64,000 nucleotides of DNA from Prochloraceae cyanobacterium (GTDB lineage: Bacteria > Cyanobacteriota > Cyanobacteriia > Cyanobacteriales > JASJDA01): NCBI GenBank assembly GCA_030065755.1, contig JASJDA010000002.1, positions 27,122-91,121 on the forward strand, written 5' to 3'. Shown piece after piece: positions 1 to 30,872 of the stretch. The stretch's first letter is position 1, and each line of letters opens with the position of its first letter. The notes under the pieces were generated by a model. It saw only the letters and a list, made by a program, of their open reading frames with translations. It did not search any database and was not told where the DNA came from. The translations under genes and the position numbers were made by a program.

Positions 1-2648
1 CCTGTCAGGGTTTTGAGTTCTTCGCCTGTTTCTAAATTCCAAAGTTTAATAGTTTTATCAGCACTGCCGGAAGCAAAGAGTTTTTCTTTAGGGCTAAAAC
101 TGACACTCCAAACTGCTCCCTGATGTCCATGCCAAACCCTTTGTCGATCCCCCTGCTGATTCCATAGGCGGATCGCACCATCATTAGAACTGGTAAGCAA
201 ATATTTTCCATCAGGACTGAACTTAACGCACCAAACAGGAACTTGCTCGGCTGAAAATTGAGCTAGCTCTTTACCTTCTAAGTTCCACAGATGAATACTC
301 CCGCCAGTGGAGGCAGTAGCAAGATATTGACCGTTAGGGCTGAAATCGACACTCCTAAGTGCACTTTGTGGATGCTCTGGAAATTTTACTTTTTGATGAC
401 CTTGAAGATCCCATAAACAAACAGTTCCGTCGTCTGATGCAGTCGTAAAAAACTTTCCGTCGGGGCTAAAGTTCAATCCCCAGATCCAGTTGTGATGTCC
501 CTTGCAGATAATTGATAATTTGTCCTGCAAGTCCCACAAGCGAGCTGTACTGTCTTGGGACCCACTGGCAAGGAATTTACCATCGGGGCTGAAAGCAAGG
601 CTACAGACGGCCCCTTGATGACCTTCTAATTTGCCTGTCTCTTGAATTTTGTCCATGATTTGCTGGAGGACATTCCTTAGAGGATCTGTAGGGTAATCCT
701 GCGGCAGCAAATCGTCCGTAATATAGTTTTTTAGCTTTTCTCCAGCCCATACAATCCTCTCTAATCCATCTAATTGCGAAATATCGAGGAATTCTTGCCA
801 TGCTTGGGTATCTACCTGACTCAAATTTTGTATAGCTTCAAGTTTGTTACGATTTCTGTTTTTCCAGTAGTCATTGTGCCACTCTAGAATGACCGGAGCG
901 AGTAGATCGTGAAAGATTTCATAGCATAAGAGGTTGGGATTGTCCTTAGAGATAACCGGATTTAGGAGACGTTGTTTGACCATTTCTTCTAGCACAGGTC
1001 GGAGTTCTTTTTCCTCAATCTCTGCTCGCACGGCTAAATCCTCAAAGGGATAGGCAATTTTAGTGCCTCTAGGAGTTACTAAATAGTTAACAAATTTAGC
1101 GACCACGTTTACCCATTTAGGATTGGCATTTTTAGATAGCTCTTCCATTTTTTCCTTGAAGTAGTTCTTGAGAACTGCTTTTGCCCCTCCCAATTTCTCT
1201 AATGTTTCCAAACGCAGTTGGCGGGATTTTTTGTTCATTTCTACTTCCCACAAGCGTTGCATCAGCACTTGCAGGTAAGAAGATTGAAATGTTCTCGGCT
1301 TAGATAAAGTTATTGTCTCCTCATCCCTACTCCCATGTCTATTCTGATGCCAGGTTTCGAGGGCAATTTCTTCTAGGATGCGCTCGACTAGTGCTGGCTC
1401 GATACCAATTTTTCGCTCCTGAGGTTGGCGATTGTAGACCTTATAGATAGGATTGAGGATCGCGTCGCAGGCGGACTGCTCGTCGAGAGGCTCAAGCTCT
1501 AATCGGTTATCTAGGATGTTAGGGATCGCAACTTTAAAGCGATCGAGTTTAGCTATCCAATCCTCGCGTATCGAGATGAGGAAATTAACCCCTAGTCCAA
1601 GACAGTTAACTGCCTTGGGAAACTCTATCTCGAACGTTCCTTCTGCCTCTTCTGGTTGGGCATGGTACAGGAAATACTCCTCAAACTGATCCAAAATGAT
1701 AAACAGTGTCCCGTCTTCTCCTTCTTCACCGAGGAACTTTGTACACACCTGTCTCCAGATGCGATGCAGAATGATACGCAAATTCCAGAAGCTAGGGCTA
1801 TATCCTAGAAACCAGAGTTTGCGGTCAGAGCTTCGAAGTTGACCAAAAAGGTTGGCGGAAAGTAGCTTGTCAATATTTTTATTGGTTAAGTAATCAATAA
1901 AATCGTCTTCGGCAACAGTAAATTTTTCTTCACCTTGAACACTTTTAACTCCCCCATAAAGTTTGACGATCACTGGACGCTCTTGGGGTAAATTCTTTTC
2001 ATACTCCTTGGGATCGACAATAGGAGTAATTTGACCTTCGGCAAAAGACATATACTCGAATTTACCCCCCTCTTCATTGCCAATAAACGCTACTAGATAG
2101 AAAGGTTGTTGCGCGTCTATAAATGCCTGTTCCAGAACACTGTCCAAACAGGTGGTCACTATTAGGGGATAAGGAGGAGCATAGCGCTTTTTCCGCAGAA
2201 TGCTAGGCAGTTTTGCCAAGAATTTGTGAACTGAGTTGGGTTGATAAGACGATGGTAGTTTTACAATGTCTTCAAGCATTAGCTCAAGGGTACCTGGAGC
2301 AGATATAGCCAGGTATTGGGAGACCTCGGTGAGAGCTATCCTCGTAATAGCATCTCTGTTTATGGGACATTCTGAGGGCAAATCTTGTACTGCTTCAGAG
2401 CATAGAGGACAAGTAATATGCTCAATATAGCGATGTTCTGATTTCTTCGCTAAGTAAACAGCCAGCTCAAAACGACTGGGAGGATAGTTACCCTCTTTCC
2501 AGTCAACAGGTTGTCCATTAGGTTTTCTTGGACGACCACAAAGGTTAACATCTGAACTAAGAACGGGAACGATCGTTCCTTGCGTAATAGCGTCAACTAC
2601 TAACTTGTAGTGTCCTCTATCGACAGAGTGAGCAGGATCGGAAATCAT
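1..2648 (-). CDS. SIR2-like domain / STAND-like helical region / WD40-repeat protein (partial; C-terminus lies beyond position 1)
   Basis: Absent from the ORF track because no stop codon lies in the window. Manual minus-strand translation from ATG ~2648 (GAGGAGG 8 nt upstream) stays open to position 1. N-terminus: MISDPAHSVDRGHYKLVVDAITQGTIVPVLSSDVNLCG, PLIVTTCLDSVLEQAF, VIVKLYGGV, LWFLGYSPSFWNLRIIL (SIR2_2/ThsA-like layout). Then LFIILDQFEEYF (Walker-B-like). The last ~200 aa are WD40 blades (GHQGAVCSLAFSPDGKFLASGSQDSTARLWDL ... ASGSADKTIKLWNLETGEELKTLTG). Confidence 0.75.
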   Translation of the reverse strand, partial: MISDPAHSVDRGHYKLVVDAITQGTIVPVLSSDVNLCGRPRKPNGQPVDWKEGNYPPSRFELAVYLAKKSEHRYIEHITCPLCSEAVQDLPSECPINRDAITRIALTEVSQYLAISAPGTLELMLEDIVKLPSSYQPNSVHKFLAKLPSILRKKRYAPPYPLIVTTCLDSVLEQAFIDAQQPFYLVAFIGNEEGGKFEYMSFAEGQITPIVDPKEYEKNLPQERPVIVKLYGGVKSVQGEEKFTVAEDDFIDYLTNKNIDKLLSANLFGQLRSSDRKLWFLGYSPSFWNLRIILHRIWRQVCTKFLGEEGEDGTLFIILDQFEEYFLYHAQPEEAEGTFEIEFPKAVNCLGLGVNFLISIREDWIAKLDRFKVAIPNILDNRLELEPLDEQSACDAILNPIYKVYNRQPQERKIGIEPALVERILEEIALETWHQNRHGSRDEETITLSKPRTFQSSYLQVLMQRLWEVEMNKKSRQLRLETLEKLGGAKAVLKNYFKEKMEELSKNANPKWVNVVAKFVNYLVTPRGTKIAYPFEDLAVRAEIEEKELRPVLEEMVKQRLLNPVISKDNPNLLCYEIFHDLLAPVILEWHNDYWKNRNRNKLEAIQNLSQVDTQAWQEFLDISQLDGLERIVWAGEKLKNYITDDLLPQDYPTDPLRNVLQQIMDKIQETGKLEGHQGAVCSLAFSPDGKFLASGSQDSTARLWDLQDKLSIICKGHHNWIWGLNFSPDGKFFTTASDDGTVCLWDLQGHQKVKFPEHPQSALRSVDFSPNGQYLATASTGGSIHLWNLEGKELAQFSAEQVPVWCVKFSPDGKYLLTSSNDGAIRLWNQQGDRQRVWHGHQGAVWSVSFSPKEKLFASGSADKTIKLWNLETGEELKTLT

Positions 2649-3084
2649 CTTAACTTACCTCCTCAAGCTAATTTCTCGCTATCCAAAAGGCATTTTGACG
2701 AAATACACTTGGGCCTAACAACACTTTGCAGAAGTAGAATTACCGCTTTTGAGGTTAAAATTATTGGCACCAAACAGTGACTAAGCAAGAAATTGTATCT
2801 TCACAGTTTGGTCGAACACCTCACAGCAGAGCATTCTGGTAAAAGTTACCTCGTCTTGATAGAGATAATTTTGAGGGGTTTTTCAGACAGTTTTCTGCTT
2901 AATTCCTTAAGATTTCCAACTTGCTCCCATAGATCGAGATTGCTTTCACCCTGCTCAGCAATTGGACTGAGCCAAAAATGTCATTCCAACTTTCTAACTT
3001 TCCTACCTTAATTGTATTAAGGGATGAAGATTTAACCATAATTAGGATGGGTCAAAATTAATATTTCTTTGCAGAGAGTCAAGA

Positions 3085-4260
3085 TTAACGCTTCTTAAGA
3101 CGTAAAGAAACATGAATAATATTTTTCAAGGAAGCAGAAATATCTGAATGTTCCCCTTCAGATATTACCTTAAAAATAGACAAAGACCCAGGATAGAAAA
3201 TGGGGCATACTTGGTCTGTAAACAGACAGGAAAAAATTGCTAGTTCTTCAAGTAAATATTTACGGCACATTTCTCCATAAAAATTGAAGGAATTGTTCTG
3301 CTCATTTAGGTGAATGTGGCGATTGACAAACTCCCTAGAAAATGATTGAATTGATTTGGCAAATCTTTCATTTTTGGCAAACAAATCTTGTAATTGTTCG
3401 TAGTAATTTTCATATTCTTTCAATTGTTTGACTTCAGAGCAATAGACAAACTGAAAATTACAGGCATCGGCATGGCATCGAAAGACAGTCATTTCAGTAT
3501 TGATATACTCTTTACCCATTAAAATTGCCTGAGTTAGTGCTTGTTTTTCGTTTAGTCCCCGATCGATTTGCAGAGTAATCCGATGTAAGCTATCCCCCAC
3601 CAGGACGATACACTTTTGAAAACGATTCGCTATCCAATCCGCGATCGCCACTAATTTGGCAGTTGAAAAGTTAGGATTTTGCAAACTGATTCCCAAGAAA
3701 CAACTATTGTAATTTTCTAGATGCTGTCGAGCATTTGAGGGAGAAACCTTGTCGATCAATACTCGATATCTTGACTTTGTGGGGATTGTTCTTTTCTCAT
3801 TAACCTTTAATAATCTCCGAAAATCGGCCCACTCCATTGTTAATAAATTTCTATAAGAATCCAGATATAACTTTATCTCTCGATTGTCTTCCAAATCCCT
3901 GGCTAATAGGACATCTACACCATAAATCTCTCCCATCGGCAGAATTGTACCTAATTCACAATCGGGAAAGAATTTCTCAACTTCTGATGAGTCAAGCAAT
4001 CTAACTTGTCGTGTCCCTAAATCTTGTCGTAGGGACTCAATATCGATGGTTAGACTAGCAGGCAAAACAGCCATCACTATTTGAGAATTGTCAATTTCTA
4101 GAAATACCGCTTCTACTAACTCCATCCCTAACATATTTTTATAGTTTTCCAACTCTTGGAGAGTATGGGCAGGTGAATAGCTAGTAACTATGTATTTCAC
4201 CTTATGGCTGTCTAGAAGTTCTTGAAGTCTTGGCATTTGCATAGGACAGAAAAGAAGCAC
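3085..4260 (-). CDS. YbaK/ProX-type tRNA-editing domain fused to a cyclodipeptide synthase (CDPS)
   Basis: ORF track, 391 aa. N-terminal ~150 aa carry a tRNA_edit-like signature (VMAVLPASLTIDIESLRQDLG ... FFPDCELGTILPMGEIYGVDVLL). C-terminal ~225 aa carry CDPS landmarks: CFLGISLQNPNFS (cf. AlbC LIGISAGNSYFS), RKYLLEELAIF (cf. AlbC NYVLAEAPLF), PIFYPGS (cf. AlbC LCYHID). The true start may be Met7/Met9 (~4242/4236). Confidence 0.8.
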   Translation of the reverse strand: MLLFCPMQMPRLQELLDSHKVKYIVTSYSPAHTLQELENYKNMLGMELVEAVFLEIDNSQIVMAVLPASLTIDIESLRQDLGTRQVRLLDSSEVEKFFPDCELGTILPMGEIYGVDVLLARDLEDNREIKLYLDSYRNLLTMEWADFRRLLKVNEKRTIPTKSRYRVLIDKVSPSNARQHLENYNSCFLGISLQNPNFSTAKLVAIADWIANRFQKCIVLVGDSLHRITLQIDRGLNEKQALTQAILMGKEYINTEMTVFRCHADACNFQFVYCSEVKQLKEYENYYEQLQDLFAKNERFAKSIQSFSREFVNRHIHLNEQNNSFNFYGEMCRKYLLEELAIFSCLFTDQVCPIFYPGSLSIFKVISEGEHSDISASLKNIIHVSLRLKKR

Positions 4261-4786
4261 TGTTATATACTATGAAGATAAAACTAACTCCCAAAGAGCG
4301 CGGGTGTGTCATTGAATAATATAGTCTATCTCTTGACAAAAGTTAGAATCAAATAAATTAATCCATAGTGCATGATTTAAATTAGTTTGATTTGTACAAT
4401 AACCAAGAGTTTTCTGATGTAGATATCAAATTATTTGTCTTGAAGTGAGATTAAATCTTTCAATATAAGACCTATTGTGAGTACCAGATGCAAAATCTTT
4501 TTCCGTTCCTTTTATCCAGAATTTTGCTACAGTTGTAAGCTTTCTTTTAAACCTTTTCTTTACTATTTGTAGGTATACATAATTGATAGATTGCATATTT
4601 CTCGATCGCTTACAAAGAGGAAAATCCGATCTATCTTAGCAAACCCTTATCCTATATAAACTTCTTTCATGTAATGCTCTTACATATTTTTTTTGTCCCT
4701 CGCCCTCTCAACTGTATTAGTTTGTAGGGACTACCGCCATTCAAACTCGTTAACCCAACGAAACTTTAAATGAGGAAATTAAAACC

Positions 4787-5923
4787 ATGAGTAACTTAGA
4801 AGCCTTAACTAAACCCAAAACCTCTCAACCCAAACTTCTGGCCCTCGATGGTGGCGGTATTCGCGGTATTATCACCGTGGAAGTTTTAGCTGAAATAGAA
4901 AAAATCCTGCAAAAAGATCTGGGGCAAGATGACAGTTTTGTCTTAGCCGATTACTTTGACTATATTGCTGGCACTAGTACGGGAGCCTTTATTGCTGCTT
5001 GTTTATCTTGGGGAATGGGTGTAAATGAGATCCGCAAGTTTTACATTTATAGTGGCAAACGGATGTTTGATAAAGCTAGCATATTCAAAGCATTAAAATA
5101 CAAATATAAAGATAAACAACTGACAAAGCAACTTAAATCGATATTTGGAGAGGAAACTCTTGGAAGCGAACGACTTAAAACATTACTGATGATGGTACTG
5201 AGAAATGCCACTACAGATTCTCCTTGGCCCATTTCAAATAACCCTCATGCTAAATATAACCAGCGTAGTCAAGAAGAAGGTGGTAACCTGTATTTCCCTT
5301 TGTGGCAACTTGTGCGTGCCAGCACCGCAGCTCCTACTTTTTTCTCTCCTGAAGTAATTGATATTAATGATGGAGAACCTTTTGTATTTGTCGACGGTGG
5401 CGTTACTTCTTTCAACAACCCTGCTTTTCAACTATTTTTGATGGCAACGACTGAACCCTACCACCTAAATTGGGATGTAGGTGAAGAGAAAATGCTTTTA
5501 GTTTCTGTCGGCACAGGTATGACTCCTGAGGCCAACAAAAATCTTGAGCCAGATGAAATGAATTTAATTTACAACGTTAAATCTGTTCCTGCTGCTTTAA
5601 TGTATGCTTCTCAAGTTCAGCAAGATTTCCTTTGCCGAGTGTTTGGTAAATGTCTTGCTGGAGATCCTATCGATCGCGAAATTGGGGACATGATCGGCAA
5701 AAAAGCACCAGGAAATTCAAAGCTATTTACTTATGTTCGTTATAATGCTGAACTGTCTCGGGCTGGATTAGATGAGTTGGGTTTAAAAGATATTCAAGAA
5801 AAAAAAGTCCAAGCCATGGATTCGGTGGAACATATCGACCAACTCCAGAAAGTTGGAAGAGCGATCGCAGACCAAAAAGTCAAAGAGGATCACTTTAAAG
5901 GTTTTCTAGTAAGACATAAATAA
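4787..5923 (+). CDS. patatin-like phospholipase
   Basis: LALDGGGIRG (oxyanion hole), AGTSTGAF (GXSXG nucleophile) and FVFVDGGV (Asp-Gly-Gly) occur in canonical order. 378 aa. Confidence 0.85.
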   Translation: MSNLEALTKPKTSQPKLLALDGGGIRGIITVEVLAEIEKILQKDLGQDDSFVLADYFDYIAGTSTGAFIAACLSWGMGVNEIRKFYIYSGKRMFDKASIFKALKYKYKDKQLTKQLKSIFGEETLGSERLKTLLMMVLRNATTDSPWPISNNPHAKYNQRSQEEGGNLYFPLWQLVRASTAAPTFFSPEVIDINDGEPFVFVDGGVTSFNNPAFQLFLMATTEPYHLNWDVGEEKMLLVSVGTGMTPEANKNLEPDEMNLIYNVKSVPAALMYASQVQQDFLCRVFGKCLAGDPIDREIGDMIGKKAPGNSKLFTYVRYNAELSRAGLDELGLKDIQEKKVQAMDSVEHIDQLQKVGRAIADQKVKEDHFKGFLVRHK

Positions 5924-6062
5924 TACCAATTTGAAAAAGTAACTAAAGACCTAGTTTATCCGTTACACTACGCCCGACTGGGACAAGCTTAAGGGCATCA
6001 TAAAGGTAAAGACCACGCAACAATTATCGAACTGTTGAGCCAGTTGTTGCCATAACAGCAAT

Positions 6063-6764
6063 CTATTTTACACTCCCAGCCAACTTATTTAGTAGTGCTT
6101 CAAATAGCCTCATACCATCTGTGTTTCCCAGTATTGGGTCTGAAGCTCTTTCTGGATGAGGCATCATACCTAAAACATTGCCTGTTTTATTAGTAATTCC
6201 AGCAATATTATTGAGAGAGCCATTGGGGTTAGCTCGAGCGCTAATTTCACCAGCAGAGCTACAATAGCGAAATGCTACTTGACCCTCGTCCTCTAAAGCT
6301 TTGAGAGTATCGCTATCGGCGTAGTAACGACCCTCTCCGTGAGCTATGGGTAAAGTAATTATCTCTCCTTTAGAATAAGATTTAGTCCAAAGTAGATCGC
6401 TTGTTTCTATTTTTAGCGGAACGCGATCGCAAATAAAATGCAAACCAGAATTGCGAATTAACGATCCAGGTAATAGTCCTACTTCTGTTAGCACTTGGAA
6501 ACCGTTACAAATACCTAGAAGGTATTTTCCTGCTTTTGCGTGTTCGACAACACTTTTGATTATGGGAGAAAAACGAGCGATCGCGCCACATCTGAGATAA
6601 TCTCCGTAGCTAAACCCGCCAGGAAGAATTATTACATCTACATCCCCTATATCTGTTTCTTGATGCCAAATCATGCGAGTGGGTTGTTGGAGTAATCCAC
6701 CTGTTACTAGGGCTACATCTCGATCGCAGTTTGACCCAGGAAAAACAATAATTCCAAATTTCAT
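6063..6764 (-). CDS. purQ: phosphoribosylformylglycinamidine synthase subunit PurQ (glutaminase)
   Basis: [16 protein letters not shown]..., [25 protein letters not shown] (catalytic Cys), MMPHPER. 233 aa, directly downstream of purS. Confidence 0.9.
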
Positions 6765-6770
6765 ATCACA

Positions 6771-7031
6771 TTACGATAATTTTGTCAACTCAAAGCAATA
6801 ATTTTCAATAACTGGATTTGCCAAAAGTCGATCGCACATTTGATGTAGCTTTTCTTTGGCGTTTGCTTCATCTGTCGCCGTGAGTCTCATTTCGATATAT
6901 TTACCAATTCTTACTTCTTCTACTTCTGGATAACCTAATTGCTTGAGTCCAGATTCTACGGCGACTCCAGCAGGATCTAGTACTGAAGGTCGGAGAGTGA
7001 CGTAAATACGAGAGTGATATTTTTCAGACAT
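6771..7031 (-). CDS. purS: phosphoribosylformylglycinamidine synthase subunit PurS
   Basis: 86 aa. Sequence VTLRPSVLDPAGVAVESGLKQLGY...ANPVIENYCFEL is typical of PurS, and it lies 6 nt upstream of purQ. Confidence 0.85.
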   Translation of the reverse strand: MSEKYHSRIYVTLRPSVLDPAGVAVESGLKQLGYPEVEEVRIGKYIEMRLTATDEANAKEKLHQMCDRLLANPVIENYCFELTKLS

Positions 7032-7130
7032 TCGATTTTGGCTAATTAATCGCGAGCCTATTCGATTTTAAACCTTTACTAGTTAAATTAACACTAGATT
7101 TCGTAGCAATTGGCTTAAAGAGATTGGTTA

Positions 7131-7298
7131 AAAGGGAACAGGGAATAGGGAACGGTCAACAGTAAAATTGATTGATATTTTCACGCACTTTTTTCTGTTC
7201 CTTCCAGCTATCCGAATTTAAAACTCCTACCTCTAAAGGTAGTCCCCAATCAGTTGGAGTTTAAATAATCCCCGCGATCGTCCCCGTTGCCCTTTTCC
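7131..7298. repeat. diverged member of the hairpin-core repeat family with GGGAACN heptamer arms
   Basis: Left arm gggaacagggaatagggaacgg and right arm cgtccccgttgcccttttcc are inverted. The core aaaactcctacctctaaaggtag...gtttaaat resembles the core of the 154-bp element at 9441 and 27565. Confidence 0.5.
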
Positions 7299-7323
7299 AG
7301 ACAATTGCTGCCTTGTTTATCGC

Positions 7324-9252
7324 TTAAATTCGGATAGTACCCCCGTCAAATAAAGGTACGGTCATAGTAAAATTCTCGCCATAAGTAAGTTTTTGCTCTT
7401 CTAAAATACCGATAGCGATCTTTTCTCCGAGGCGCAGAGATTCGATATAATCCGTAAAGTAGTGTACTCCTGCCCAGTTACGACCGATCGAAATATTAGC
7501 TGCAATTTTATTTAGTTCTCCTTCAACAGTTAAAGGTTCTGCGATCGTGACCTGATTCAATCCATTACCATTTTCATTGGGTTCGTAGGCAATATATCGC
7601 TCTTCTTGTTTGCCGAAATTAAGTTCAAAGCCGCTATCGAAAAATGCTTTGAGCATGGTAACGCAAGCCCCAGCTACTGTTGCGTGTCCCGCACCATAAC
7701 TGGGATGCATTGGCGAACCTTCTGGAAAAGCCATAGGTAAGAAGTAATTATTTACGCCATTATCATCATCGTCATCGTCGTCATCGTCATCATCATCATC
7801 ATTATTACTACTATTTTGAGAAAGATTGTATTCTGCAACTAGATCCAACAAACTTTTATCTCCCAATAATTTCTCGTCTAAAGCCTCAACTAGCTTAGCG
7901 AGGGGTTTTAGTTCGCGATCGGTACCAATGCCTTTTTTATAGCGATCGATTAAACCAGCTAATGCCTCTGGTCGCAAGCGACGATGAACGTTAAACTTTT
8001 GATAGCGGACGGCTTTTAAGGCCCTAGTAGCTACTTCGCAGACTAAACTTAAAATCTGGGGAGCGCCAAATTGAGCAAAACCTTGCTGTTTGTCTTCTAC
8101 ATCTGGTTTTTGGAAAGGAATACCAGGATCGAAAGGGACTCCCATTCCCAACATAATCAAACAAGCATTGAGATAAGCTTCATAAAGCGCGTCGTAGTGT
8201 ACGTAAGTAGCTACATCTCTCGGAGTAGTAATAAAGCGATATTCATCGCCAACATAACTTTCAAGTCCGCGCAGGTCTGCACCATTCTGAACGTCCAACC
8301 AAGTCTCAAAATTGGTCATATAGTCCTGCGAAGGAGTAGCAACGCGGACTTTTTGATCGATCCGAATCGAACCATAGGTAATTAAACCGTCTTTTTGCTC
8401 TCGATCGCTGTTGTTGCTATTTATTCCTTCATTACCAATTAGCAAAAATTGAGATAGATAAGGGCCTTTTTGGTCTCCAGGTGCAATACCTCGAAAGATA
8501 TTTTGTCTTGTCACTGGCGGTCGATGACGCGCCCTTTCTAGATCGCTGAGTTCGCAACATTCCGAAGCAAACCAATTGCGACCCATAATTTTGACATTAT
8601 TTAAGATCGTAATTGCCTCTTGAACGGTTACTGGCAATTCCGTCTCATATTGTTCTCCTTCAACTGAAGAGTCTCGTAGTTGAGAAAAATGAATTTCTCT
8701 GAGTAAGGCTTGAAGATATAGTTCGGCTATTTCTGCCGCAAGTTCGACACTATCTATAGTTGGTGCCGGCGGCATAGTGACGGCTTGTGCGTCTGGCCCT
8801 TCTAAATCGAATGTTAATCCAGCACCAGCACTTTCCCAAGCACGCAGTTTTGCACCTCTGCCATCTTCAGCTTGTTTGGCTATTTCAGATTGCCAAAATT
8901 CTTGACGATTTTCAGTATCGCAAGTTATTTGTTGTTTACTCAAACAACCCGATTCTTTAGGTAGAGCGGCTGGCCCTAATGGAGTTTTCGCAAAATCTTT
9001 GGGGTCTCCCGATTGTATGCCTAAAACAAATTGCTGGTAGTCAGCGCTGTTTAATAGTAAACCAGTTTCTGGGTCGTGGGGCAAACCTTTAGTAAAATTA
9101 GCAATGTAGCTGGGTTCGTTGTTGTTCTCCCCTTTTGAACGGCGATACTTATATTCTTCTCCATTGCTTTTCTGTACTGCATGCGATCGATTTGCGGCAA
9201 TTTCAGCAGCATTATTTCTAATTTGTTGGGCTTGCTGTCTCCGATTCATCAT
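7324..9252 (-). CDS. vanadium-dependent haloperoxidase-like protein (PAP2 superfamily) with poly-Asp insert
   Basis: 642 aa. Motifs in order: KFNVHRRLRPE (K-x7-RP as in algal bromoperoxidases), PSYGAGHATVAGACVTMLKAFF (PSGH-type), GRNWAGVHYFTD (R-x5-H-x3-D). A run of 13 Asp is encoded at ~7762-7800. Confidence 0.7.
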   Translation of the reverse strand: MMNRRQQAQQIRNNAAEIAANRSHAVQKSNGEEYKYRRSKGENNNEPSYIANFTKGLPHDPETGLLLNSADYQQFVLGIQSGDPKDFAKTPLGPAALPKESGCLSKQQITCDTENRQEFWQSEIAKQAEDGRGAKLRAWESAGAGLTFDLEGPDAQAVTMPPAPTIDSVELAAEIAELYLQALLREIHFSQLRDSSVEGEQYETELPVTVQEAITILNNVKIMGRNWFASECCELSDLERARHRPPVTRQNIFRGIAPGDQKGPYLSQFLLIGNEGINSNNSDREQKDGLITYGSIRIDQKVRVATPSQDYMTNFETWLDVQNGADLRGLESYVGDEYRFITTPRDVATYVHYDALYEAYLNACLIMLGMGVPFDPGIPFQKPDVEDKQQGFAQFGAPQILSLVCEVATRALKAVRYQKFNVHRRLRPEALAGLIDRYKKGIGTDRELKPLAKLVEALDEKLLGDKSLLDLVAEYNLSQNSSNNDDDDDDDDDDDDDNGVNNYFLPMAFPEGSPMHPSYGAGHATVAGACVTMLKAFFDSGFELNFGKQEERYIAYEPNENGNGLNQVTIAEPLTVEGELNKIAANISIGRNWAGVHYFTDYIESLRLGEKIAIGILEEQKLTYGENFTMTVPLFDGGTIRI

Positions 9253-20986: not shown

Positions 20987-23900
20987 TTATTGCTGTTTTA
21001 GTATCACCAAAGTAATATCATCAAATACTTTTTGTTTGCCAATAAATTCTCTGAGATCGTCAATAACTGCTTGTTTAATCTCTTGGGCGCTAAACTGCCA
21101 ATTTTGACTAATAACCTCACAGAGTCTATCCATCCCGTATTGTTTTTTCTCCAAATCGAAAGCTTCGGGGATGCCATCAGTATACAGAACTACCCCATCA
21201 CCAGGATGTAACTCAACCACAGTGCGATCGATAAAATCAGCAATATCGTCATCTAGACCGATGGGTAAGCCTAAATCCATTGTGTCAATGCGTTCGATAT
21301 GACCTCCAGCACGGACTACAAGGGTTTCTTCATGTTGTCCGCTGATGCTAACTTTCCCCTCTGAGTAGTTCAGAATGGCTAAGGTTAGATTTTTATCAGA
21401 GTTCATCCGTTGCACGTTGCGATAGATCGTGCGGTTTAGGGTATCTAAGAACCTGACAGGATCGTACTCGCGAATTTCTTGCAAGGTACGCACTGCGGTT
21501 TGGGTCATCAGCATTAAGAGACCACTTTCTAAACCGTGCCCTGTTACGTCGCCAATGCCCAGAGTAATAATGCCATCCATCTGCAGCACGTCATAGTAGT
21601 CTCCGCCTATTTCATCTGCTGGTTCCATAAATCCAGCGATATCCAGACCGTCAACGCTTTCCAATTCTTCAGGTTTGGGCAAAATCATTTGTTGAATCTG
21701 TCGAGCTATGTCGAGTTCTGCCCCCAGGCGCAAGTTTTCGATCTTGAGTTTTTCATTGAGTTGGGTGATTTCGGCGTTAGCAGCAGCCAGTTGGGTGGTG
21801 CGTTCGGCGACTTTATCTTCTAGGGTTTGATAGAAGCGAGCATTTTTGATAGATATTGCTGCTTGGGTGGTGATGAGTTTGAGGACTTGAATGTGGTCTG
21901 AGGTAAAAGCTTCTGTGGTGAGGTTATTTTCGAGGTAGAGAATGCCGAGTAGTTCTCCCTGATTGAGAATAGAGGTGCAGAAGAGACTTTTAGGTTGCTT
22001 TTGAATGAGATATGGGTCTCCCGTAAAGGTCTTGTCTTGTTCGACGTTGTTGAGGAGCAGAGGCTGTTGAGTTCGTTTGACGGTGTTGATAATGGTACTG
22101 GGTAAAGTGTCGATTCGATCGAGAGAAGTGGTGAATATGTGACAGTCGCTGTTATCGCATTGGGCGACGACTTCCCAAGTACCGGAGTTGTTTAAAATTA
22201 AAACTACTGTATCGGCTCCAGCATTTTCGATGACGACGTGCATCAATTTAGAGAGCAAGGCATTGATTTCGATTTCCCCAGAGAGAGCTTGGGAGGCTTT
22301 GATAGCGCAGGCGAGATCGAAAACGGAGCTAGTGGTTGTAACTGTGCCGAGGTGTTGGGGAGAGGTTAGGGGATTGCTAAAATTGAGGGAGGATTGGGGT
22401 TGTTGGAGGATGGGGGTAAGGAGTTGAGGATATTTTTGTTCGAGTTGGTTGACCTTGGCTTTGGCTCCCCAACGGGCATAGCAATAGTAAGCTTCCTGCA
22501 TATAGGCAGCAGCTACTTTTTCTTTACCCCAAGCTAGGTAGAATTTGGCGACTAATTCGTTGGCTAAAGCTTCTTCTTGGATGTAGCCATTTTCTTTGGC
22601 TCCGGCAATGGCGCGATCGTACATTTCGATCGCTTCTAGTTTTTCTCCCAAAACTCGATTTTGCTCGGCCTCGACCAGATAAAATTTATGGAGATGATTC
22701 ATCGGGGCATGGCGGGCCCAAATTCTCATTTTTTCTCGATCGGCAGCTATTTTTGCCAAAATTTTATCTTGCTCGGATTTGGCGACACGGGGATAGATTG
22801 CCAATCGGGTCAGAGAATCGTATAAATGAAAGACTGGAACGGCAAGCGCTGCTGTTACCGTGCCTAAATACTCTGCGGCTCGATCGCTATGGGTTAGAGC
22901 TAGATCGAACTCCTCAAATAGATAGCAAAGGATAAGTTTATTTAAGTACAAATAGTGCAGTCCGTACCCGTTATTATTTGCTAAATAAATCGGTAGCAAT
23001 CGCTCTTCATCGATCGCCTCCCCAACTAAACGAGAGGGATTGTCAGACTTGCCCGTCAAATTCAAAGCTGTCTGCCGAGTCACTTCAACTAAATTGACTC
23101 CCATGTTTTGCTGAAGTCGCTCTAGATCTTGACTCCAAATCTTCATTTCCCGTTCGAGAGAGGTGAGTTCCTTGCCTGTAAACAGGGAATACTGACAGAT
23201 TTTGAATGCCGTATAGCCAGCCCATTCAAACTCTCCCGATTCTACCCCGCATTGATATCCCCACCGCAGAGGATCGAGTACTTTTCGGGCGTGGTCTTTC
23301 CAATGAAGGAGGAAGCCTTCAACCATATCCAATGTCCGAGCCTGAATCGCTTGGGCGTTAAATTTGTCAAGCAAACTCAAGGCTAATTTGCCAAATTGAT
23401 AGCCAGATTCAATGTCGCCGATCGTCCCGCACAGAATAACGCCGTAAACCCCATAAGCAAAAGCCGACCAAGGAGAATTTCCGTATTGGACGGACAATTT
23501 TACTTTTTCTAAGACCAGGAGCGGCATGAGGTCGGGAATAGATACGTAAACTGGAGCGAATAAACTCGATAAAACGCTCATTGTTGCCAATTTATGAGGA
23601 TCGGTCATTTCTGGCAAGTCGATCGCCGCTGAAGGGTTCTTCCCCGTCGAAGTTGACATGACTTCCTTCAATCCGCGCTGAAGATCTGACGGTTTCGGAC
23701 GTTCGGGAAAATTTGTTCCTAAAAGTTTTAGGGCTTGCAATCCAATTTCGATCCCTTCCTGCAACCTGTTTTGCGAAGCATAGGCTGTAATTTTAATTTC
23801 ATAAATTTTAACTTTTTCAAGAGTTGTTTCTGCCTGTTTCAAGACAACGTCTGCCCAGATTTCCATTTGCTCGAAGTTGCCGTTTAGGTACGCTACTTCT

Positions 23901-26311
23901 GTAGCTAATTTGTAGAGCGATAGGGTGAGGTCGTATTGATTCTGCCAACAATCGATGTCTAGAAGTTCTATTCCTACGGTTAAATAGGTTTTGGCAGCCC
24001 CATAAGCTGTAGCAACTTTGGCTTTCCGTCCAGCGATTAAATTTAATCGAGCGAGTTCTTCTCGGTCTGTCAGCTGAGGAATTAATTCTACTGCCATATT
24101 TAATTGATTGACAATATCAAAAATTTTCTCTTCTTGCTCTGCTTCTGGGGTATTCCTTAAAAGAAGTCTGCCAATTTTGAGGTGAGTGGACTGTTTCTGA
24201 GATTCAGGAATGAGAAAATAGGCAGCTTGTTGAACGCGATCGTGCAAAAAACGGTAACTGACTGAAACCGATCCGGTCTCTGTTTCCTTGTTTGGTTCTC
24301 CTTGGAAAAACTTATAGGTTTCAGTTTCGGGAATAACCAATCCCTCTGGCAAAGCTTGCCATAAATACCTGGCTACTTCCTCTTGGGTTTCCTCACATAC
24401 GATCGCCAAGGTCTCTAAATCAAATCGATTGCCAATGCAAGCTGCTAGTTTTAATACTTTCTGAGTCTCCTCTGGCAGTTTATGCAACCTTCCCACCATG
24501 AATTCCACCACATCTTCGGTGAGAGCCAACTGACGGACTTTCGGCAGATTCCACAGCCAATATCCTACCTCAGCATCAAATCGAATACACTTCTCCTCGT
24601 GCAATCCTTGCAAAAATTGAGTCGTAAAAAATGGATTGCCCTGTGTCTTTTGATAGACTAATTCAGATAATGGCGTAGCGACTTTTACCGAACACTGCAA
24701 GGTATCGGCAATCAAACGAGTAATATCTATATCCCCCAAAGGGGTAAGGGTAAGAGTATTGAGCTTCGATCCCTGTTTCTGAATTTCCTTCAGCGTCAGC
24801 ATTAACGGATGGGCGGGAAATACCTCATTATCCCGATAGGCTCCCAACATCAGTAAATAACCCGCTGCCGATTCGTCCATCAACAACTTCAGTAGATTTA
24901 ACGAAGCCGAATCTACCCACTGCAAGTCGTCGAGAAAAATGACGAGAGGATGCTCTTTGGTGGTGAAGATACGAACAAACTTGCCAAACAACAAATTGAA
25001 GCGATTCTGTGCTGCACTGCCAGAGAATTCTGGTACGGCTGGCTGTTTGCCAATGATGCGTTCGAGTTCTGGAATTACCTCGATTAGTATTTGACCATTT
25101 TCCCCCAGAGCTTCGAGGATTTTCGTTTTCCAGGTGGCTAGTTGGGCATCTGACTCCCCCAGCAATTGCCCCATTAAGTCTCGGAAGGCTTGCACGAAAG
25201 CTGAAAAGGGAATGTTCCGATTAAACTGGTCAAATTTACCTTGAATGAAATAGCCTCGCTGTCGGACAATGGGTTTGTGAACTTCGTTAACAACAGCAGT
25301 CTTGCCAATTCCTGAAAACCCAGCCACCAGCATTATTTCTGTTGTACCATTGGCAACCCGCCAGAAGGCATCTAGCAGGGTTTGCACTTCAGTTTCCCGT
25401 CCGTAGAGTTTTTCGGGAATCATGAAGCGATCGCACAAATCCCTCTCCCCAAGCTGGAAAGAGTTTATTTCTCCTTTGGCTTGCAACTGTTGCCAACATC
25501 GCTCTAGATCGTGCTTCAAACCCAAGGCGCTCTGATAGCGATGTTCGGCATTCTTCTCCATTAACTTGAGAACGATCGCCCGTAACACGTCCGGAACTGC
25601 TGACTGGGCAATGCTCGCAGGAAATTCTGCCGATCGGGCAATATGGCAATGCACCAACTCCATCGGATCCCTACTTGTAAAGGGTAAGGTTCCCGTCAGA
25701 AGTTCAAAAAATGTCACTCCTAGGCAATAGAAATCCGTGCGGTAGTCTATCCCTCGGTTCATGCGTCCAGTTTGCTCTGGAGATATGTAGGCAAGAGACC
25801 CTTCCAGGAGATTTGGGTTGGTGAGTTGCTGCTGCTCTTTGGGCAGCAAACTGGAGATACTAAAGTCGATCAGTTTTACCAAGCGGGTTTCGGGGTGGAT
25901 GAGGATGTTGCTTGGTTTGATGTCTTTGTGAATGATGCGCTTTTGGATGAGGTAATGCAAAACTTCGCTCAGTTGAGTGGCAATTGCCAAGAATTCGCTG
26001 AGAGAACGGGGGGACTTTTGCCAATAGTCCCAGAGGGGGATCTCACCTTCATCCTTCATTACCAGAGCATAACCATTACCATAGTTTTCTAGGGCCAGGG
26101 GTTGAACGATCGTGGGATGTTCCAGAAGACGGGCGATCGAGTATTGGTTGCGGAATTGGACTAACTCATTGACGTTGGGGTGGGGGTTGCGTAGAATTTT
26201 GACGATCGCGGGTTGCCGATCTATAGTTCGGATGGCTCGATAAACAAGGGTGTTGGTTCCAACATAGATTTGGTTAGTTTCTTGATAATTAGGAAGGTTA
26301 AGCATCTTCAA
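20987..26311 (-). CDS. multidomain Ser/Thr kinase - AAA ATPase - TPR - GAF - PP2C (SpoIIE/RsbU-type) phosphatase
   Basis: 1774 aa. HKDIKPSNIL and SPEQ (kinase), VAGFSGIGKTAVVNE (P-loop), long helical-repeat region, GAF (LGILYLEN), coiled coil, C-terminal GDVTGHGLESGLLM ... LYTDGIPEA (PP2C/SpoIIE). Confidence 0.85.
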   Translation of the reverse strand: MKMLNLPNYQETNQIYVGTNTLVYRAIRTIDRQPAIVKILRNPHPNVNELVQFRNQYSIARLLEHPTIVQPLALENYGNGYALVMKDEGEIPLWDYWQKSPRSLSEFLAIATQLSEVLHYLIQKRIIHKDIKPSNILIHPETRLVKLIDFSISSLLPKEQQQLTNPNLLEGSLAYISPEQTGRMNRGIDYRTDFYCLGVTFFELLTGTLPFTSRDPMELVHCHIARSAEFPASIAQSAVPDVLRAIVLKLMEKNAEHRYQSALGLKHDLERCWQQLQAKGEINSFQLGERDLCDRFMIPEKLYGRETEVQTLLDAFWRVANGTTEIMLVAGFSGIGKTAVVNEVHKPIVRQRGYFIQGKFDQFNRNIPFSAFVQAFRDLMGQLLGESDAQLATWKTKILEALGENGQILIEVIPELERIIGKQPAVPEFSGSAAQNRFNLLFGKFVRIFTTKEHPLVIFLDDLQWVDSASLNLLKLLMDESAAGYLLMLGAYRDNEVFPAHPLMLTLKEIQKQGSKLNTLTLTPLGDIDITRLIADTLQCSVKVATPLSELVYQKTQGNPFFTTQFLQGLHEEKCIRFDAEVGYWLWNLPKVRQLALTEDVVEFMVGRLHKLPEETQKVLKLAACIGNRFDLETLAIVCEETQEEVARYLWQALPEGLVIPETETYKFFQGEPNKETETGSVSVSYRFLHDRVQQAAYFLIPESQKQSTHLKIGRLLLRNTPEAEQEEKIFDIVNQLNMAVELIPQLTDREELARLNLIAGRKAKVATAYGAAKTYLTVGIELLDIDCWQNQYDLTLSLYKLATEVAYLNGNFEQMEIWADVVLKQAETTLEKVKIYEIKITAYASQNRLQEGIEIGLQALKLLGTNFPERPKPSDLQRGLKEVMSTSTGKNPSAAIDLPEMTDPHKLATMSVLSSLFAPVYVSIPDLMPLLVLEKVKLSVQYGNSPWSAFAYGVYGVILCGTIGDIESGYQFGKLALSLLDKFNAQAIQARTLDMVEGFLLHWKDHARKVLDPLRWGYQCGVESGEFEWAGYTAFKICQYSLFTGKELTSLEREMKIWSQDLERLQQNMGVNLVEVTRQTALNLTGKSDNPSRLVGEAIDEERLLPIYLANNNGYGLHYLYLNKLILCYLFEEFDLALTHSDRAAEYLGTVTAALAVPVFHLYDSLTRLAIYPRVAKSEQDKILAKIAADREKMRIWARHAPMNHLHKFYLVEAEQNRVLGEKLEAIEMYDRAIAGAKENGYIQEEALANELVAKFYLAWGKEKVAAAYMQEAYYCYARWGAKAKVNQLEQKYPQLLTPILQQPQSSLNFSNPLTSPQHLGTVTTTSSVFDLACAIKASQALSGEIEINALLSKLMHVVIENAGADTVVLILNNSGTWEVVAQCDNSDCHIFTTSLDRIDTLPSTIINTVKRTQQPLLLNNVEQDKTFTGDPYLIQKQPKSLFCTSILNQGELLGILYLENNLTTEAFTSDHIQVLKLITTQAAISIKNARFYQTLEDKVAERTTQLAAANAEITQLNEKLKIENLRLGAELDIARQIQQMILPKPEELESVDGLDIAGFMEPADEIGGDYYDVLQMDGIITLGIGDVTGHGLESGLLMLMTQTAVRTLQEIREYDPVRFLDTLNRTIYRNVQRMNSDKNLTLAILNYSEGKVSISGQHEETLVVRAGGHIERIDTMDLGLPIGLDDDIADFIDRTVVELHPGDGVVLYTDGIPEAFDLEKKQYGMDRLCEVISQNWQFSAQEIKQAVIDDLREFIGKQKVFDDITLVILKQQ

Positions 26312-29517: not shown

Positions 29518-30872
29518 CACTCTCCTGAATAGAATTCAGGAGATTCTTGGCTCAACGACAAAACTTACCCTGACAGCTTCTCAGCAGCCAAGATAGAGGT
29601 TTCGTCTCCCCAAGCTTTAAATCCCGTATGCCCTACGGTACTCAATCCAATTAAGAGTATGTTTTTGGCTGCGTTCTTGTCTCTGTCTAAAATGCAGCCA
29701 CATTTACATTTATGGGTTCTCGTGCATAGTGTTTTAGTTACTTTTGCTCCACACTCAGAACAATTAACCGAAGTGTATTGTGGTGGAACAGCAACAGTTA
29801 TCTTACCAAACTTATACCCGAAATACTCTAACCATACTCTAAATTGATACCAACCCACGTCAGTGATTGACTTGGCAAGATGATGATTTTTGACCATATT
29901 GGCAATTCTTAAGTCTTCATAGGCGACTACATCGTTAGATGTGATTACGCACCGTGCCAATTTCACGGCATGGTCTTGACGCTGCCTACTTATCTTAAGA
30001 TGTTTGATGGCATATCTTTTTCTTGCTTTATGGTAGTTATTAGACTGAGGTTTTTTACCTTTGACATATTTTTTAGACTGGCGCCGATTCAAGCGATTGA
30101 GAGCTTTTTCTCCTTGACGATAAAATCTGGGATTCTCAATTTGATTGCCCTTGTCGTCCGTATAAAAGTGATTCAGCCCAACGTCTAAGCCAATTTCTGA
30201 GTAGGATGGCTCTATTTTTTCCTTAATATCTACATCAACTAAAAACTGACCATAATAACCGTCAGCACGTCGGACTATTCGCACTCTTTTAATTTGTTTT
30301 TCCTTGTACCAAAGTAGATTGCGAGTGCCTTTTAGCTTAACTTTGCCAATACCTTTCTGGTCAGAAAAAGTGATGTATTTTCTATCTTCTGATAACTTCC
30401 AGCCAGTAGTTTTATACTCTACTGAGCGAGAATGTTTGCGAAATTTAGGAAATCCTTTCTTGCCAGGAATATTCTTTTTGCAGTTGCTATAAAAACGAGA
30501 TATAGCGGCCCAAGCTCTGTCAGCACTTGATTGACGTGCCATAGAGTTTAATTGAGCAGCAAAAGGAAATTGAGCAGCTAAAACCTTGCAATATGCACTC
30601 AAGTCATATTTGCCCACTCCAATGTTATCCATCCAATAGCGCAAAGCTTTGTTGCGAATAAATTGAGCAGTTCTAATTGCTTCATCCATTGCCAAACACT
30701 GTTTATGCTTGGCGTATATCTTCATTTCTAAAACTAGCATATTCTTATGCTAGGATATTAGCGTAAGAATATCAAGCCATATCTATAATGGAGACTGCGG
30801 ATAAATCCCCTATCTCGTTTTCATCTCCGAAATTCTATTTCGGAGCTTTCAACTGCGTTCAACTTCCGTAAT
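29514..30872 (-). mobile_element. IS200/IS605-family tnpB-only element (approximate ends)
   Basis: Right-end hairpin tctcctgaat-tcta-ttcaggaga followed by gtgtcaa, abutting the stop codon of the upstream gene. Left-end hairpin ctccgaaat-agaa-tttcggag at ~30825-30850. No tnpA. Confidence 0.65.
29565..30740 (-). CDS. tnpB: TnpB (IS605 OrfB-type RNA-guided nuclease family)
   Basis: 391 aa. IGLDVGLNHFYTD (RuvC-I Asp), VAYEDL (RuvC-II Glu), zinc finger CSECGAKV...CKCGCILDRDKNAAKNIL (RuvC-III Asp). Confidence 0.9.
   Translation of the reverse strand: MLVLEMKIYAKHKQCLAMDEAIRTAQFIRNKALRYWMDNIGVGKYDLSAYCKVLAAQFPFAAQLNSMARQSSADRAWAAISRFYSNCKKNIPGKKGFPKFRKHSRSVEYKTTGWKLSEDRKYITFSDQKGIGKVKLKGTRNLLWYKEKQIKRVRIVRRADGYYGQFLVDVDIKEKIEPSYSEIGLDVGLNHFYTDDKGNQIENPRFYRQGEKALNRLNRRQSKKYVKGKKPQSNNYHKARKRYAIKHLKISRQRQDHAVKLARCVITSNDVVAYEDLRIANMVKNHHLAKSITDVGWYQFRVWLEYFGYKFGKITVAVPPQYTSVNCSECGAKVTKTLCTRTHKCKCGCILDRDKNAAKNILLIGLSTVGHTGFKAWGDETSILAAEKLSG

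Follow-up and report, generated by a model that had tools for sequence, protein, structure and literature searches.

To our knowledge, every confirmed messenger of bacterial immunity is nucleotide-derived (cyclic oligonucleotides, cyclic ADP-ribose isomers and His-ADP-ribose), and we know of cyclodipeptide synthases (CDPSs) only as natural-product enzymes. In the present study, we analysed a 64,000-nucleotide stretch of DNA (the window, to which all positions refer unless a locus is named) from a metagenome-assembled genome (MAG) of a Prochloraceae cyanobacterium. Near its left end, a gene for a CDPS fused to a YbaK-like domain stands between a gene with SIR2-type, nSTAND1 and WD40 domains and a gene for a patatin-like phospholipase. 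The initial annotation had read these three genes as a possible signalling island, in which the CDPS makes the small molecule that controls the lipase and/or the SIR2-WD40 protein. In our analysis the CDPS gene was indeed linked to SIR2 and WD40 genes in 23 loci, while the patatin link (3 of 23 loci), the role of the CDPS as an obligate signal generator and the likening of the SIR2 domain to ThsA did not stand. We consider it fairly probable (about 0.6) that a conserved three-gene conflict cassette survives in the window in decayed form, beside an unrelated patatin gene, and that within this cassette the CDPS is an output, either downstream or parallel.

Several described systems resemble the cassette in part. 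The STAND or NLR-like (nucleotide-binding, leucine-rich-repeat-like) systems, including Avs, bNACHT and the nSTAND1 systems of Kaur et al. 2021 (PMC8195603), share with it a STAND NTPase with C-terminal WD40 repeats, ties to TIR, SIR2 or nuclease-type effectors and an enrichment in cyanobacteria. The cassette differs from them in that its effector is carried by a protein of its own, together with a degenerate SIR2-like module, its NTPase is of the nSTAND1 clade and not NACHT or Avs (the window copy having no Walker A), and a tRNA-dependent CDPS is a conserved third gene. Thoeris (ThsB TIR and ThsA SIR2-SLOG) likewise has TIR and SIR2-type domains in one locus; in the cassette, however, the two are fused in one protein, the catalytic His is lost (in the TIR-fused type the Asn as well), and there is no SLOG or other signal-receptor domain but a STAND-WD40 sensor. 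For the CDPS domain, the closest solved relative is the XYP-type CDPS BcmA (PDB 9J61; phmmer 166 bits, 37-38% identity), whose catalytic Ser, Tyr, Glu and Tyr-Pro match those of the window protein. Unlike BcmA, the window protein bears an N-terminal YbaK-like domain, has no bicyclomycin tailoring oxygenases near it and belongs to an NLR-like conflict operon instead of a biosynthetic cluster. We place the cassette among the NLR-like STAND systems whose effectors are TIR domains or nucleases, with a novel tRNA-dependent enzymatic accessory. In the literature on CDPSs with YbaK, editing domains, anti-phage systems, cyclic oligonucleotide-based anti-phage signalling systems (CBASS), Thoeris, NLR and nSTAND1, we found no description of this association, of a CDPS in any defence context or of a YbaK-CDPS fusion; neither CDPS nor YbaK is mentioned in the two STAND surveys of Kaur et al. 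or in a 2025 survey of TIR signalling systems.

A conserved operon-like unit

Loci were gathered by a one-genome-per-species scan, a JGI metagenome scan and exact-protein look-ups with precomputed Pfam annotation, and all of them were searched with tblastn and custom hidden Markov models. The CDPS fusion was represented by 63 homologue clusters, mostly cyanobacterial, among 5.8 billion proteins. It adjoined SIR2-like and nSTAND1-WD40 genes in 23 distinct loci (window included), always on the same strand, in Nostocales, Synechococcus, Prochloraceae, Leptolyngbyaceae and metagenome hosts. SIR2 and STAND genes adjoined the CDPS homologue in all eight cyanobacterial species genomes that carry one, with the fusion intact in seven, and the linkage was still kept where CDPS identity to the window protein drops to 33-35%. 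The flanking genes vary among the linked loci, as does the GC content of the locus (0.40 to 0.63).

Two gene orders recur. In type A, found in the window lineage, in Synechococcus and on metagenome contigs with a GC content of 0.49-0.63, the YbaK-CDPS gene is followed by SIR2-TIR and then by STAND-WD40, and most loci have intergenic gaps of 27-55 nucleotides. In type B, found in Nostoc, Anabaena, Amazonocrinis, Leptolyngbyaceae and a second locus of the assembly that holds L062 (the closest relative of the window), a SIR2 gene, with or without a fused metallophosphoesterase (MPE), is followed by a STAND-WD40 gene (tandem in some loci) and then by YbaK-CDPS. Intact cassettes are present in the relatives L063, L064 and L005. 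Four strains in culture have them too: Nostoc sp. NIES-4103 (type B, around NIES4103_66510), Nostoc paludosum FACHB-159, Anabaena sp. WFMT and Synechococcus sp. Tobar12-5m-g (type A, NZ_JAGQBB010000008). The CDPS, SIR2 and STAND-WD40 genes thus are a conserved operon-like unit; their occurrence in 23 loci, in two conserved orders and in different genomic contexts argues that they form a functional unit. The initial annotation would have been refuted had orthologues of its genes never co-localised in other genomes, and for the CDPS, SIR2 and WD40 genes they do co-localise.

The same observations bear on the explanation, raised in simpler form by the initial annotation, that the genes are accidental neighbours in a variable island, the CDPS being a common enzyme of secondary metabolism carried along by a defence pair. 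In favour of this, the locus is prone to recombination (identity between window and L062 is 100% from purQ to the middle of the CDPS gene and about 88% thereafter), an insertion sequence (IS) element has entered L062, another TIR-STAND gene abuts the cassette in L008, and in Methylococcaceae the fusion stands alone; for the patatin gene, discussed below, it is probably right. It does not fit with 23 loci on one strand, in two fixed orders and with mostly short gaps amid differing flanks and hosts. The linked fusions are a single clade in a neighbour-joining tree, with BcmA-like standalone CDPSs as the sister group, and their divergence goes with that of their partners: the pairwise-identity matrices of the CDPS, SIR2 and STAND domains correlate with a Spearman coefficient of about 0.7. 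Furthermore, a Lys to Glu/Asp change in the YbaK-like domain is clade-specific and goes with the linkage, and tailoring enzymes (P450s, 2-oxoglutarate oxygenases) were found beside no fusion in the Pfam gene lists. We regard accidental neighbourhood as improbable. A role of the CDPS as a bicyclomycin-type biosynthetic gene was rejected, as such enzymes are adjacent in no fusion locus.

Other arrangements were met in the survey. A separate clade of YbaK-CDPS fusions (L071, L072, L086 and L091) keeps the catalytic Lys, and neither SIR2 nor STAND genes were found in any of the four loci; in L071 and L072, where the upstream region is annotated, the fusion comes directly after an Asp/Glu racemase gene and before an open reading frame (ORF) of 194 amino acids (aa). 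This racemase-linked clade may represent a distinct metabolic use of the fusion, perhaps with D-amino acids. A weakly YbaK-like protein from Symploca falls outside the linked clade. In L008 (1-4416, a Synechococcus MAG) the CDPS is an ORF of 284 aa without the YbaK part, and an 815-aa TIR-STAND gene abuts on the opposite strand, which is further evidence of a variable conflict island. Three tandem standalone BcmA-like CDPS genes occur in L030 10001-13886 (Prochloraceae cyanobacterium PL24a_bin.78). A conserved protein of about 170 aa, predicted to span the membrane and without a Pfam match, is encoded in all type B cassettes (MPE-SIR2, Nostocales-type), where its gene precedes MPE-SIR2 or follows the CDPS (L001 11459-11980; L007 2961-3473; also L003, L004, L002, L006 and L065), and a trypsin-like peptidase is found upstream in three type B loci. 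In the STAND gene of Anabaena (L001 8501-9797), the WD40 region has tandem arrays of 123 bp whose repeats match each other at 76-78%; no tandem repeats were found in the WD40 region of the window or in L063. Among IMG/VR viral contigs and PLSDB plasmids there was no YbaK-CDPS fusion, and so no sign of a phage- or plasmid-borne cassette.

The window copy and its decay

The first gene of the window (3-2648, minus strand) encodes at least 882 aa and continues past the left window edge. The initial annotation had called it a SIR2-WD40 gene, and its domains were confirmed: SIR2_2 (PF13289) at aa 162-299 (profile positions 2-107 of 141; E 8e-10, compared with 2e-13 to 2e-16 in intact relatives), nSTAND1 (Pfam PF20703) at aa 310-619 (profile positions 115-373 of 379; E 2e-16) and five WD40 repeats starting at aa 661 (E 1e-58). 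The gene itself proved to be a fusion of two genes made by a deletion, without Walker A and without TIR. In the intact relative L063, 77% identical, two separate genes occupy the place of this one ORF. By blastn, window 2661-1752 aligns with L063 1881-2808 and window 1751-1 with L063 3914-5667, and 1105 bp (L063 2809-3913) are absent from the window. The breakpoints put the junction at 1751-1752, where the window reads TGGAGA on one side and CAGGTGTG on the other.

The deletion removed aa 306-522 of the SIR2-TIR protein (all of the TIR and the last part of the SIR2-like domain), the intergenic spacer and aa 1-133 of the STAND protein, including its Walker A motif GISGVGKSS, which is intact in L063. 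What is left is an open in-frame fusion, in which the N-terminal 299 aa of the SIR2-TIR gene (1752-2648, minus strand) run into the nSTAND1 NTPase from just before Walker B (FIILDQFEE at aa 316). The NTPase remainder, with its helical and winged-helix region, covers 792-1721, and the WD40 beta-propeller repeats, presumably the sensor domain, cover 3-668 and are cut by the window edge (both minus strand). Hence gene 1 retains the C-terminal superstructure-forming repeat sensor of a STAND protein (its WD40 repeats) and Walker B, and it has no Walker A motif, so that the pair expected of a P-loop NTPase is incomplete. A STAND NTPase without its P-loop cannot serve as a nucleotide switch. Since both the TIR domain and Walker A are lost, the sensor and effector arm of the window copy is, judging from its sequence, most likely inactive. 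In the window only the CDPS and patatin genes are left intact.

The closest relative, L062, has suffered in the same gene. Its SIR2-TIR gene is broken by a TnpB element (Cas12f1-like_TNB, IS200/605-type; L062 4763-6233) inserted about 30 nucleotides beyond the deletion point of the window, and the gene has therefore been hit twice, by different disruptions, in close relatives. The two sequences are 100% identical from about 6311 (purQ) to about 3512 and then about 88% identical over the remainder of the CDPS gene and in the SIR2 remnant, which suggests a recombination breakpoint inside the CDPS gene (window 3400-3600) or a chimeric metagenome contig. The ratio of non-synonymous to synonymous substitution rates (dN/dS) was 0.35-0.56 for the remnants, values that fit a recent pseudogene as well as a functional gene. 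The CDPS gene is intact, with a dN/dS of 0.28-0.33, in these two strains with a disrupted SIR2-TIR gene.

Enzyme domains and the place of the CDPS

The YbaK-CDPS fusion gene, recognised with Pfam and NCBIfam, lies at 3085-4260 on the minus strand, and its true start is likely the ATG at 4242 (MQMPRL...). Its XYP-type CDPS domain (3088-3735, minus strand; Pfam E 2e-12; NCBIfam TIGR04539 97 bits vs a cutoff of 45) carries S192, Y335, E339 and Y356-P357, which align to BcmA S43, Y185, E189, Y206 and P207 when read against PMC11580168, and which supply the catalytic residues of XYP CDPSs (AlbC S37, Y178, E182 and Y202-P203). Among 26 aligned family members, S192, Y335, E339 and Y356 are invariant and P357 is present in 25. 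An AlphaFold2 model of the fusion (pLDDT 87, pTM 0.87) has the Rossmann fold, like that of class-I aminoacyl-tRNA synthetases, that is expected of CDPSs; Foldseek gave it a target-normalised TM-score (TMt) of 0.93 to BcmA 9j61, and 5ocd, 5mlq, 3oqv and others matched at E < 1e-7. SsBcmA (9J61) is the cyclo(Leu-Ile/Val) synthase of bicyclomycin biosynthesis, and each turnover of a CDPS consumes two charged tRNAs (PMC11580168). Of the eight P1 pocket residues of BcmA, seven are identical in the window protein, and the P2 changes are conservative; the pocket positions vary among the 26 members and are hydrophobic throughout. As the pockets are BcmA-like and hydrophobic, the predicted product is cyclo(Leu-X) with an aliphatic X, and the substrates should be Leu-tRNA together with Ile-, Val- or Leu-tRNA.

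The YbaK/ProX-like domain of the fusion (3766-4242, minus strand) matches tRNA_edit/YbaK PF04073 at aa 30-150 (E 4e-12). Its closest structure is Legionella lpg1207 (PDB 3OP6; 89 bits, TMt 0.86 on the AlphaFold2 model, compared with 0.68 to YbaK 1dbu), and it shares the fold, the Pfam family and a conserved GxxPPFG loop with the YbaK/ProX trans-editing deacylases of the INS superfamily. It differs from these enzymes in being fused to a CDPS and in having Glu in place of the strictly conserved Lys: the LAKTV of 3op6 aligns with LVEAV in the window. The site corresponds to the catalytic Lys of the superfamily, K46 of YbaK. Every SIR2/STAND-linked fusion whose YbaK domain could be scored has Glu or Asp there, and the racemase-linked clade has Lys. 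In a search of 1.84e9 representative proteins, Lys was kept in 131 of the 150 best-scoring relatives, and the 11 of these 150 with Glu or Asp were all CDPS-fusion-length proteins or fragments. With the deacylase Lys lost, tRNA editing is less likely than a binding role, whether for the 3' end of a tRNA, for a ligand or for a partner protein. Two of the proteins most closely related to this domain, P0321 (491 aa) and P0322 (448 aa), have three tandem YbaK-like domains each.

The SIR2-like domain is degenerate as well. Alignment and a PDB profile search gave TTCLD for TTNYD and KLYG for KLHG in the window, that is, Cys at the catalytic Asn and Tyr at the catalytic His (KomC H146; 7uxt protein). 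All 14 aligned SIR2 domains have Tyr or Asn at the His position, and the Asn position is Cys in the TIR-fused type, so that the Asn and His of SIR2-type NADases (ThsA, KomC, DSR-like) are not found together. With the catalytic His lost, the domain is not a ThsA-like NADase, contrary to the analogy first drawn for it, and these residues indicate that it is probably not a canonical NADase at all. The effector domain joined to the SIR2-like partner varies: it is a TIR, a calcineurin-like MPE or none. The TIR of the intact relative L063 has its catalytic Glu, and the TIR part matched PADLOC ThsB at 5e-15; the type B phosphoesterase resembles a PADLOC CBASS "endonuclease" effector and PDC-S60. A Thoeris system was not recognised, as the relatives have a single SIR2-like-TIR protein where Thoeris has a separate ThsB and an effector with a signal-binding domain, and the window has no TIR.

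Full-length SIR2-TIR homologues are numerous. In three looked-up homologues (41-49% identical), from Rippkaea orientalis PCC 8801 and two metagenomic or MAG lineages, the nSTAND1-WD40 gene is next and a CDPS is absent; a CDPS-less pair is also found in Microcystis loci. The SIR2-TIR and STAND-WD40 pair is therefore the core and the CDPS an add-on, and since the pair exists without the CDPS, the latter cannot be the obligate signal generator of the core that it was first taken to be. SIR2-TIR identity was 36% for the CDPS-linked L069 vs 49% for the unlinked P0073; as the linked SIR2-TIR proteins do not consistently resemble one another more than they resemble unlinked ones, the CDPS was gained or lost more than once.

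An intact cassette thus comprises, on one strand, the fusion of the Lys-less YbaK-like domain with the CDPS, a SIR2-like protein with a variable effector and an nSTAND1 NTPase that ends in WD40 repeats. Taking APAF-1, Avs and bacterial NLR-like proteins as a guide, we infer that the WD40 propeller would bind an invader-derived ligand and that the NTPase would then oligomerise in an NTP-dependent manner. The TIR (as an NADase) or the phosphoesterase would be switched on, with the degenerate SIR2-like domain as a constant coupling module. In our preferred reading the CDPS would not be an obligate upstream trigger but an enzymatic output that the activated complex has downstream of it or in parallel, and its selected function would be to make a diffusible cyclodipeptide, possibly a signal or alarm. 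This output role is favoured because the core works without the CDPS, because the CDPS persists with every effector type, because in the SIR2-only loci it is the only evident enzyme besides the NTPase (the L067-type loci have neither TIR nor MPE), and because the catalytic residues are invariant and the pockets stay hydrophobic.

The alternative nearest to the initial annotation places the CDPS upstream, as a signal generator or translation-status sensor. As its substrates are charged tRNAs, the cyclodipeptide level would report infection or translation shut-off, and the product would switch on, or by its fall release, the SIR2/TIR-STAND pair and/or the patatin. The tight and wide linkage of the CDPS with SIR2 and STAND-WD40 genes agrees with this, and so does its place as the first gene of type A loci; the invariant catalytic residues and the mostly conserved hydrophobic pockets suggest that a specific product matters, and a patatin gene is adjacent in three loci. 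The cores without a CDPS, found in at least four lineages, weaken it, and STAND-WD40 proteins are themselves sensors. Furthermore, a small-molecule receptor domain could be recognised in none of the SIR2, STAND and patatin proteins, and the patatin is missing from 20 of the 23 linked loci and has a DUF4071/TPR-S partner of its own. An upstream role for the CDPS is thus possible, although rather unlikely.

The CDPS may also be thought of as a toxic effector: once activated, it would use up Leu-, Ile- or Val-tRNA and stop translation, acting alongside NAD+ depletion in abortive infection. The cost of two charged tRNAs per turnover (PMC11580168) would suit this role, the L067-type loci have no other obvious effector domain, and the YbaK-like domain, which retains its fold and GxxPPFG loop, could deliver or gate aminoacyl-tRNA. 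CDPSs are, however, routinely overexpressed in E. coli without reported toxicity (whole-cell assays, PMC11580168), and the mostly conserved hydrophobic pockets and the invariant cyclisation Tyr point to a product and not to mere deacylation. In addition, the gene is still intact after loss of the regulator in the window and in L062. Such a tRNA-draining toxin is less likely than an output that works through its product, and we consider it very unlikely.

Several points weigh against the output reading itself. The ties of these genes to phage defence and to each other rest on sequence and gene neighbourhood. PADLOC (v2), a check suggested by the initial annotation, returned matches at the domain level only, with no system-level match and no model for the cassette. 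Nothing points to a receiver for a cyclodipeptide signal. Expression of CDPSs in E. coli is not known to be toxic in general, a point against killing as their role. In Methylococcaceae (L009/L077 and L010), a Glu/Asp-type fusion stands alone among housekeeping genes, and the fusion can therefore work without the STAND pair. The deletion in the window is known from a MAG assembly alone, and the dN/dS values do not distinguish a recent pseudogene from a functional gene. Finally, three lineages (the window, L005 and Microcystis) have a patatin gene near a SIR2-TIR/STAND pair, so that some looser functional link is possible.

The patatin gene and its surroundings

The patatin-like phospholipase gene (4787-5923, plus strand; Pfam Patatin E 8e-25) has intact motifs: DGGGIRG, GTSTG with the catalytic Ser and DGG with the catalytic Asp. 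CapV, the cyclic GMP-AMP-activated patatin phospholipase of CBASS, shares with it the Ser-Asp dyad and a similar N-terminal half (71 bits to CapV 8zr9), and the PADLOC CBASS-type phospholipase effector PDLC00758 matched at 7e-47. Unlike CapV, however, the window patatin is just as similar to the plant patatin 1oxw, and its orthologues pair with DUF4071/TPR-S proteins. An assignment as CapV was rejected, since the NCBIfam CBASS_lipase score (120 bits) is under the curated cutoff of 200 and no cyclase is present: no CD-NTase-type cyclase domain, as CBASS would have, was found in the scanned ORFs of 1-11 kb.

The patatin adjoins the cassette in three of the 23 linked loci (window, L062 and L005) and is absent from the other 20. 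Its family is large (about 8000 matches below 1e-20, with 63-80% identity across phyla), and most members are in genomes without such a CDPS. In L005 the patatin gene overlaps a TPR-S/MAP3K_TRAF_bd (formerly DUF4071) gene, and on the Rhizobium plasmid CP050566 a 52% orthologue is followed by a DUF4071 protein. The patatin is thus most likely the orphaned effector of a separate patatin and DUF4071/TPR-S module in the same island, and its proposed membership of the CDPS system was not borne out. In Microcystis aeruginosa (L113-L118), a 67% patatin orthologue stands two genes, with GHL10 between, from a convergent SIR2-TIR and nSTAND1-WD40 pair, and a CDPS is absent; a looser, island-level association of patatin with the SIR2-TIR/STAND pair exists.

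The layout given by the initial annotation was correct at all its coordinates, from the three adjacent genes and the divergence of CDPS and patatin to both lower-GC spacers and the purQ/purS border. The spacer between the CDPS gene and the SIR2 remnant (2649-3084; 436 bp) has a GC content of 0.376 and the divergent intergenic region between CDPS and patatin (4261-4786; 526 bp) one of 0.316, both below that of the whole window (0.411). The former aligns to L063 at its two ends only, and no conserved element was found in it; the latter is 100% identical with L062. A single short two-copy direct repeat in 2649-3084, probably due to chance, was the only repeat in the two spacers, with none in 4261-4786. 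An Rfam scan of 1-7400 at a permissive threshold returned only a chance-level snoRNA match inside the SIR2 coding region, and promoter and terminator scans were at or below shuffle expectation and say nothing on co-transcription. A search of the window for remnants found no trace of the deleted TIR and STAND N-terminus, of a TPR-S partner (4261-4786 included) or of the Nostocales membrane protein.

To the right, purQ (6063-6764, minus strand) and purS (6771-7031, minus strand) form the housekeeping border of the island and match exactly PurQ MDJ0712697.1 and PurS MDJ0712698.1 of a Prochloraceae cyanobacterium MAG. Farther on, the window contains a 642-aa ORF with no Pfam match and a run of 13 consecutive Asp (7324-9252, minus strand), and a 1774-aa multidomain signalling protein with Ser/Thr kinase, AAA_16 ATPase, GAF and SpoIIE/PP2C phosphatase domains (20987-26311, minus strand). 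It also holds a 391-aa TnpB (29565-30740, minus strand; OrfB_IS605 and Cas12f1-like TNB) with 29% identity to the TnpB of L062, a different IS copy.

The window holds only the wreck of a system, and its value is in the family to which it points. That family defines a widespread two-gene cyanobacterial core, a degenerate SIR2-like domain with TIR or MPE and an nSTAND1-WD40 protein, and it shows that apparent effector domains such as SIR2 and YbaK can be catalytically dead adaptors, which calls for caution in domain-based annotation. The fusion might even be the first immune module that makes a non-nucleotide messenger from charged tRNAs, with cyclo(Leu-X), made within an NLR-like SIR2/TIR-STAND system, as a second messenger inside the cell or a diffusible alarm from cell to cell, and with the Lys-less YbaK-like domain as a regulatory or ligand-binding switch; this is a bold idea, which we hold to be doubtful. 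More generally, a CDPS clade in an NLR-like operon across distant hosts, with a clade-specific inactivation of its fused tRNA-editing domain, suggests a new signalling chemistry or a direct tie between immunity and the charged-tRNA pool.

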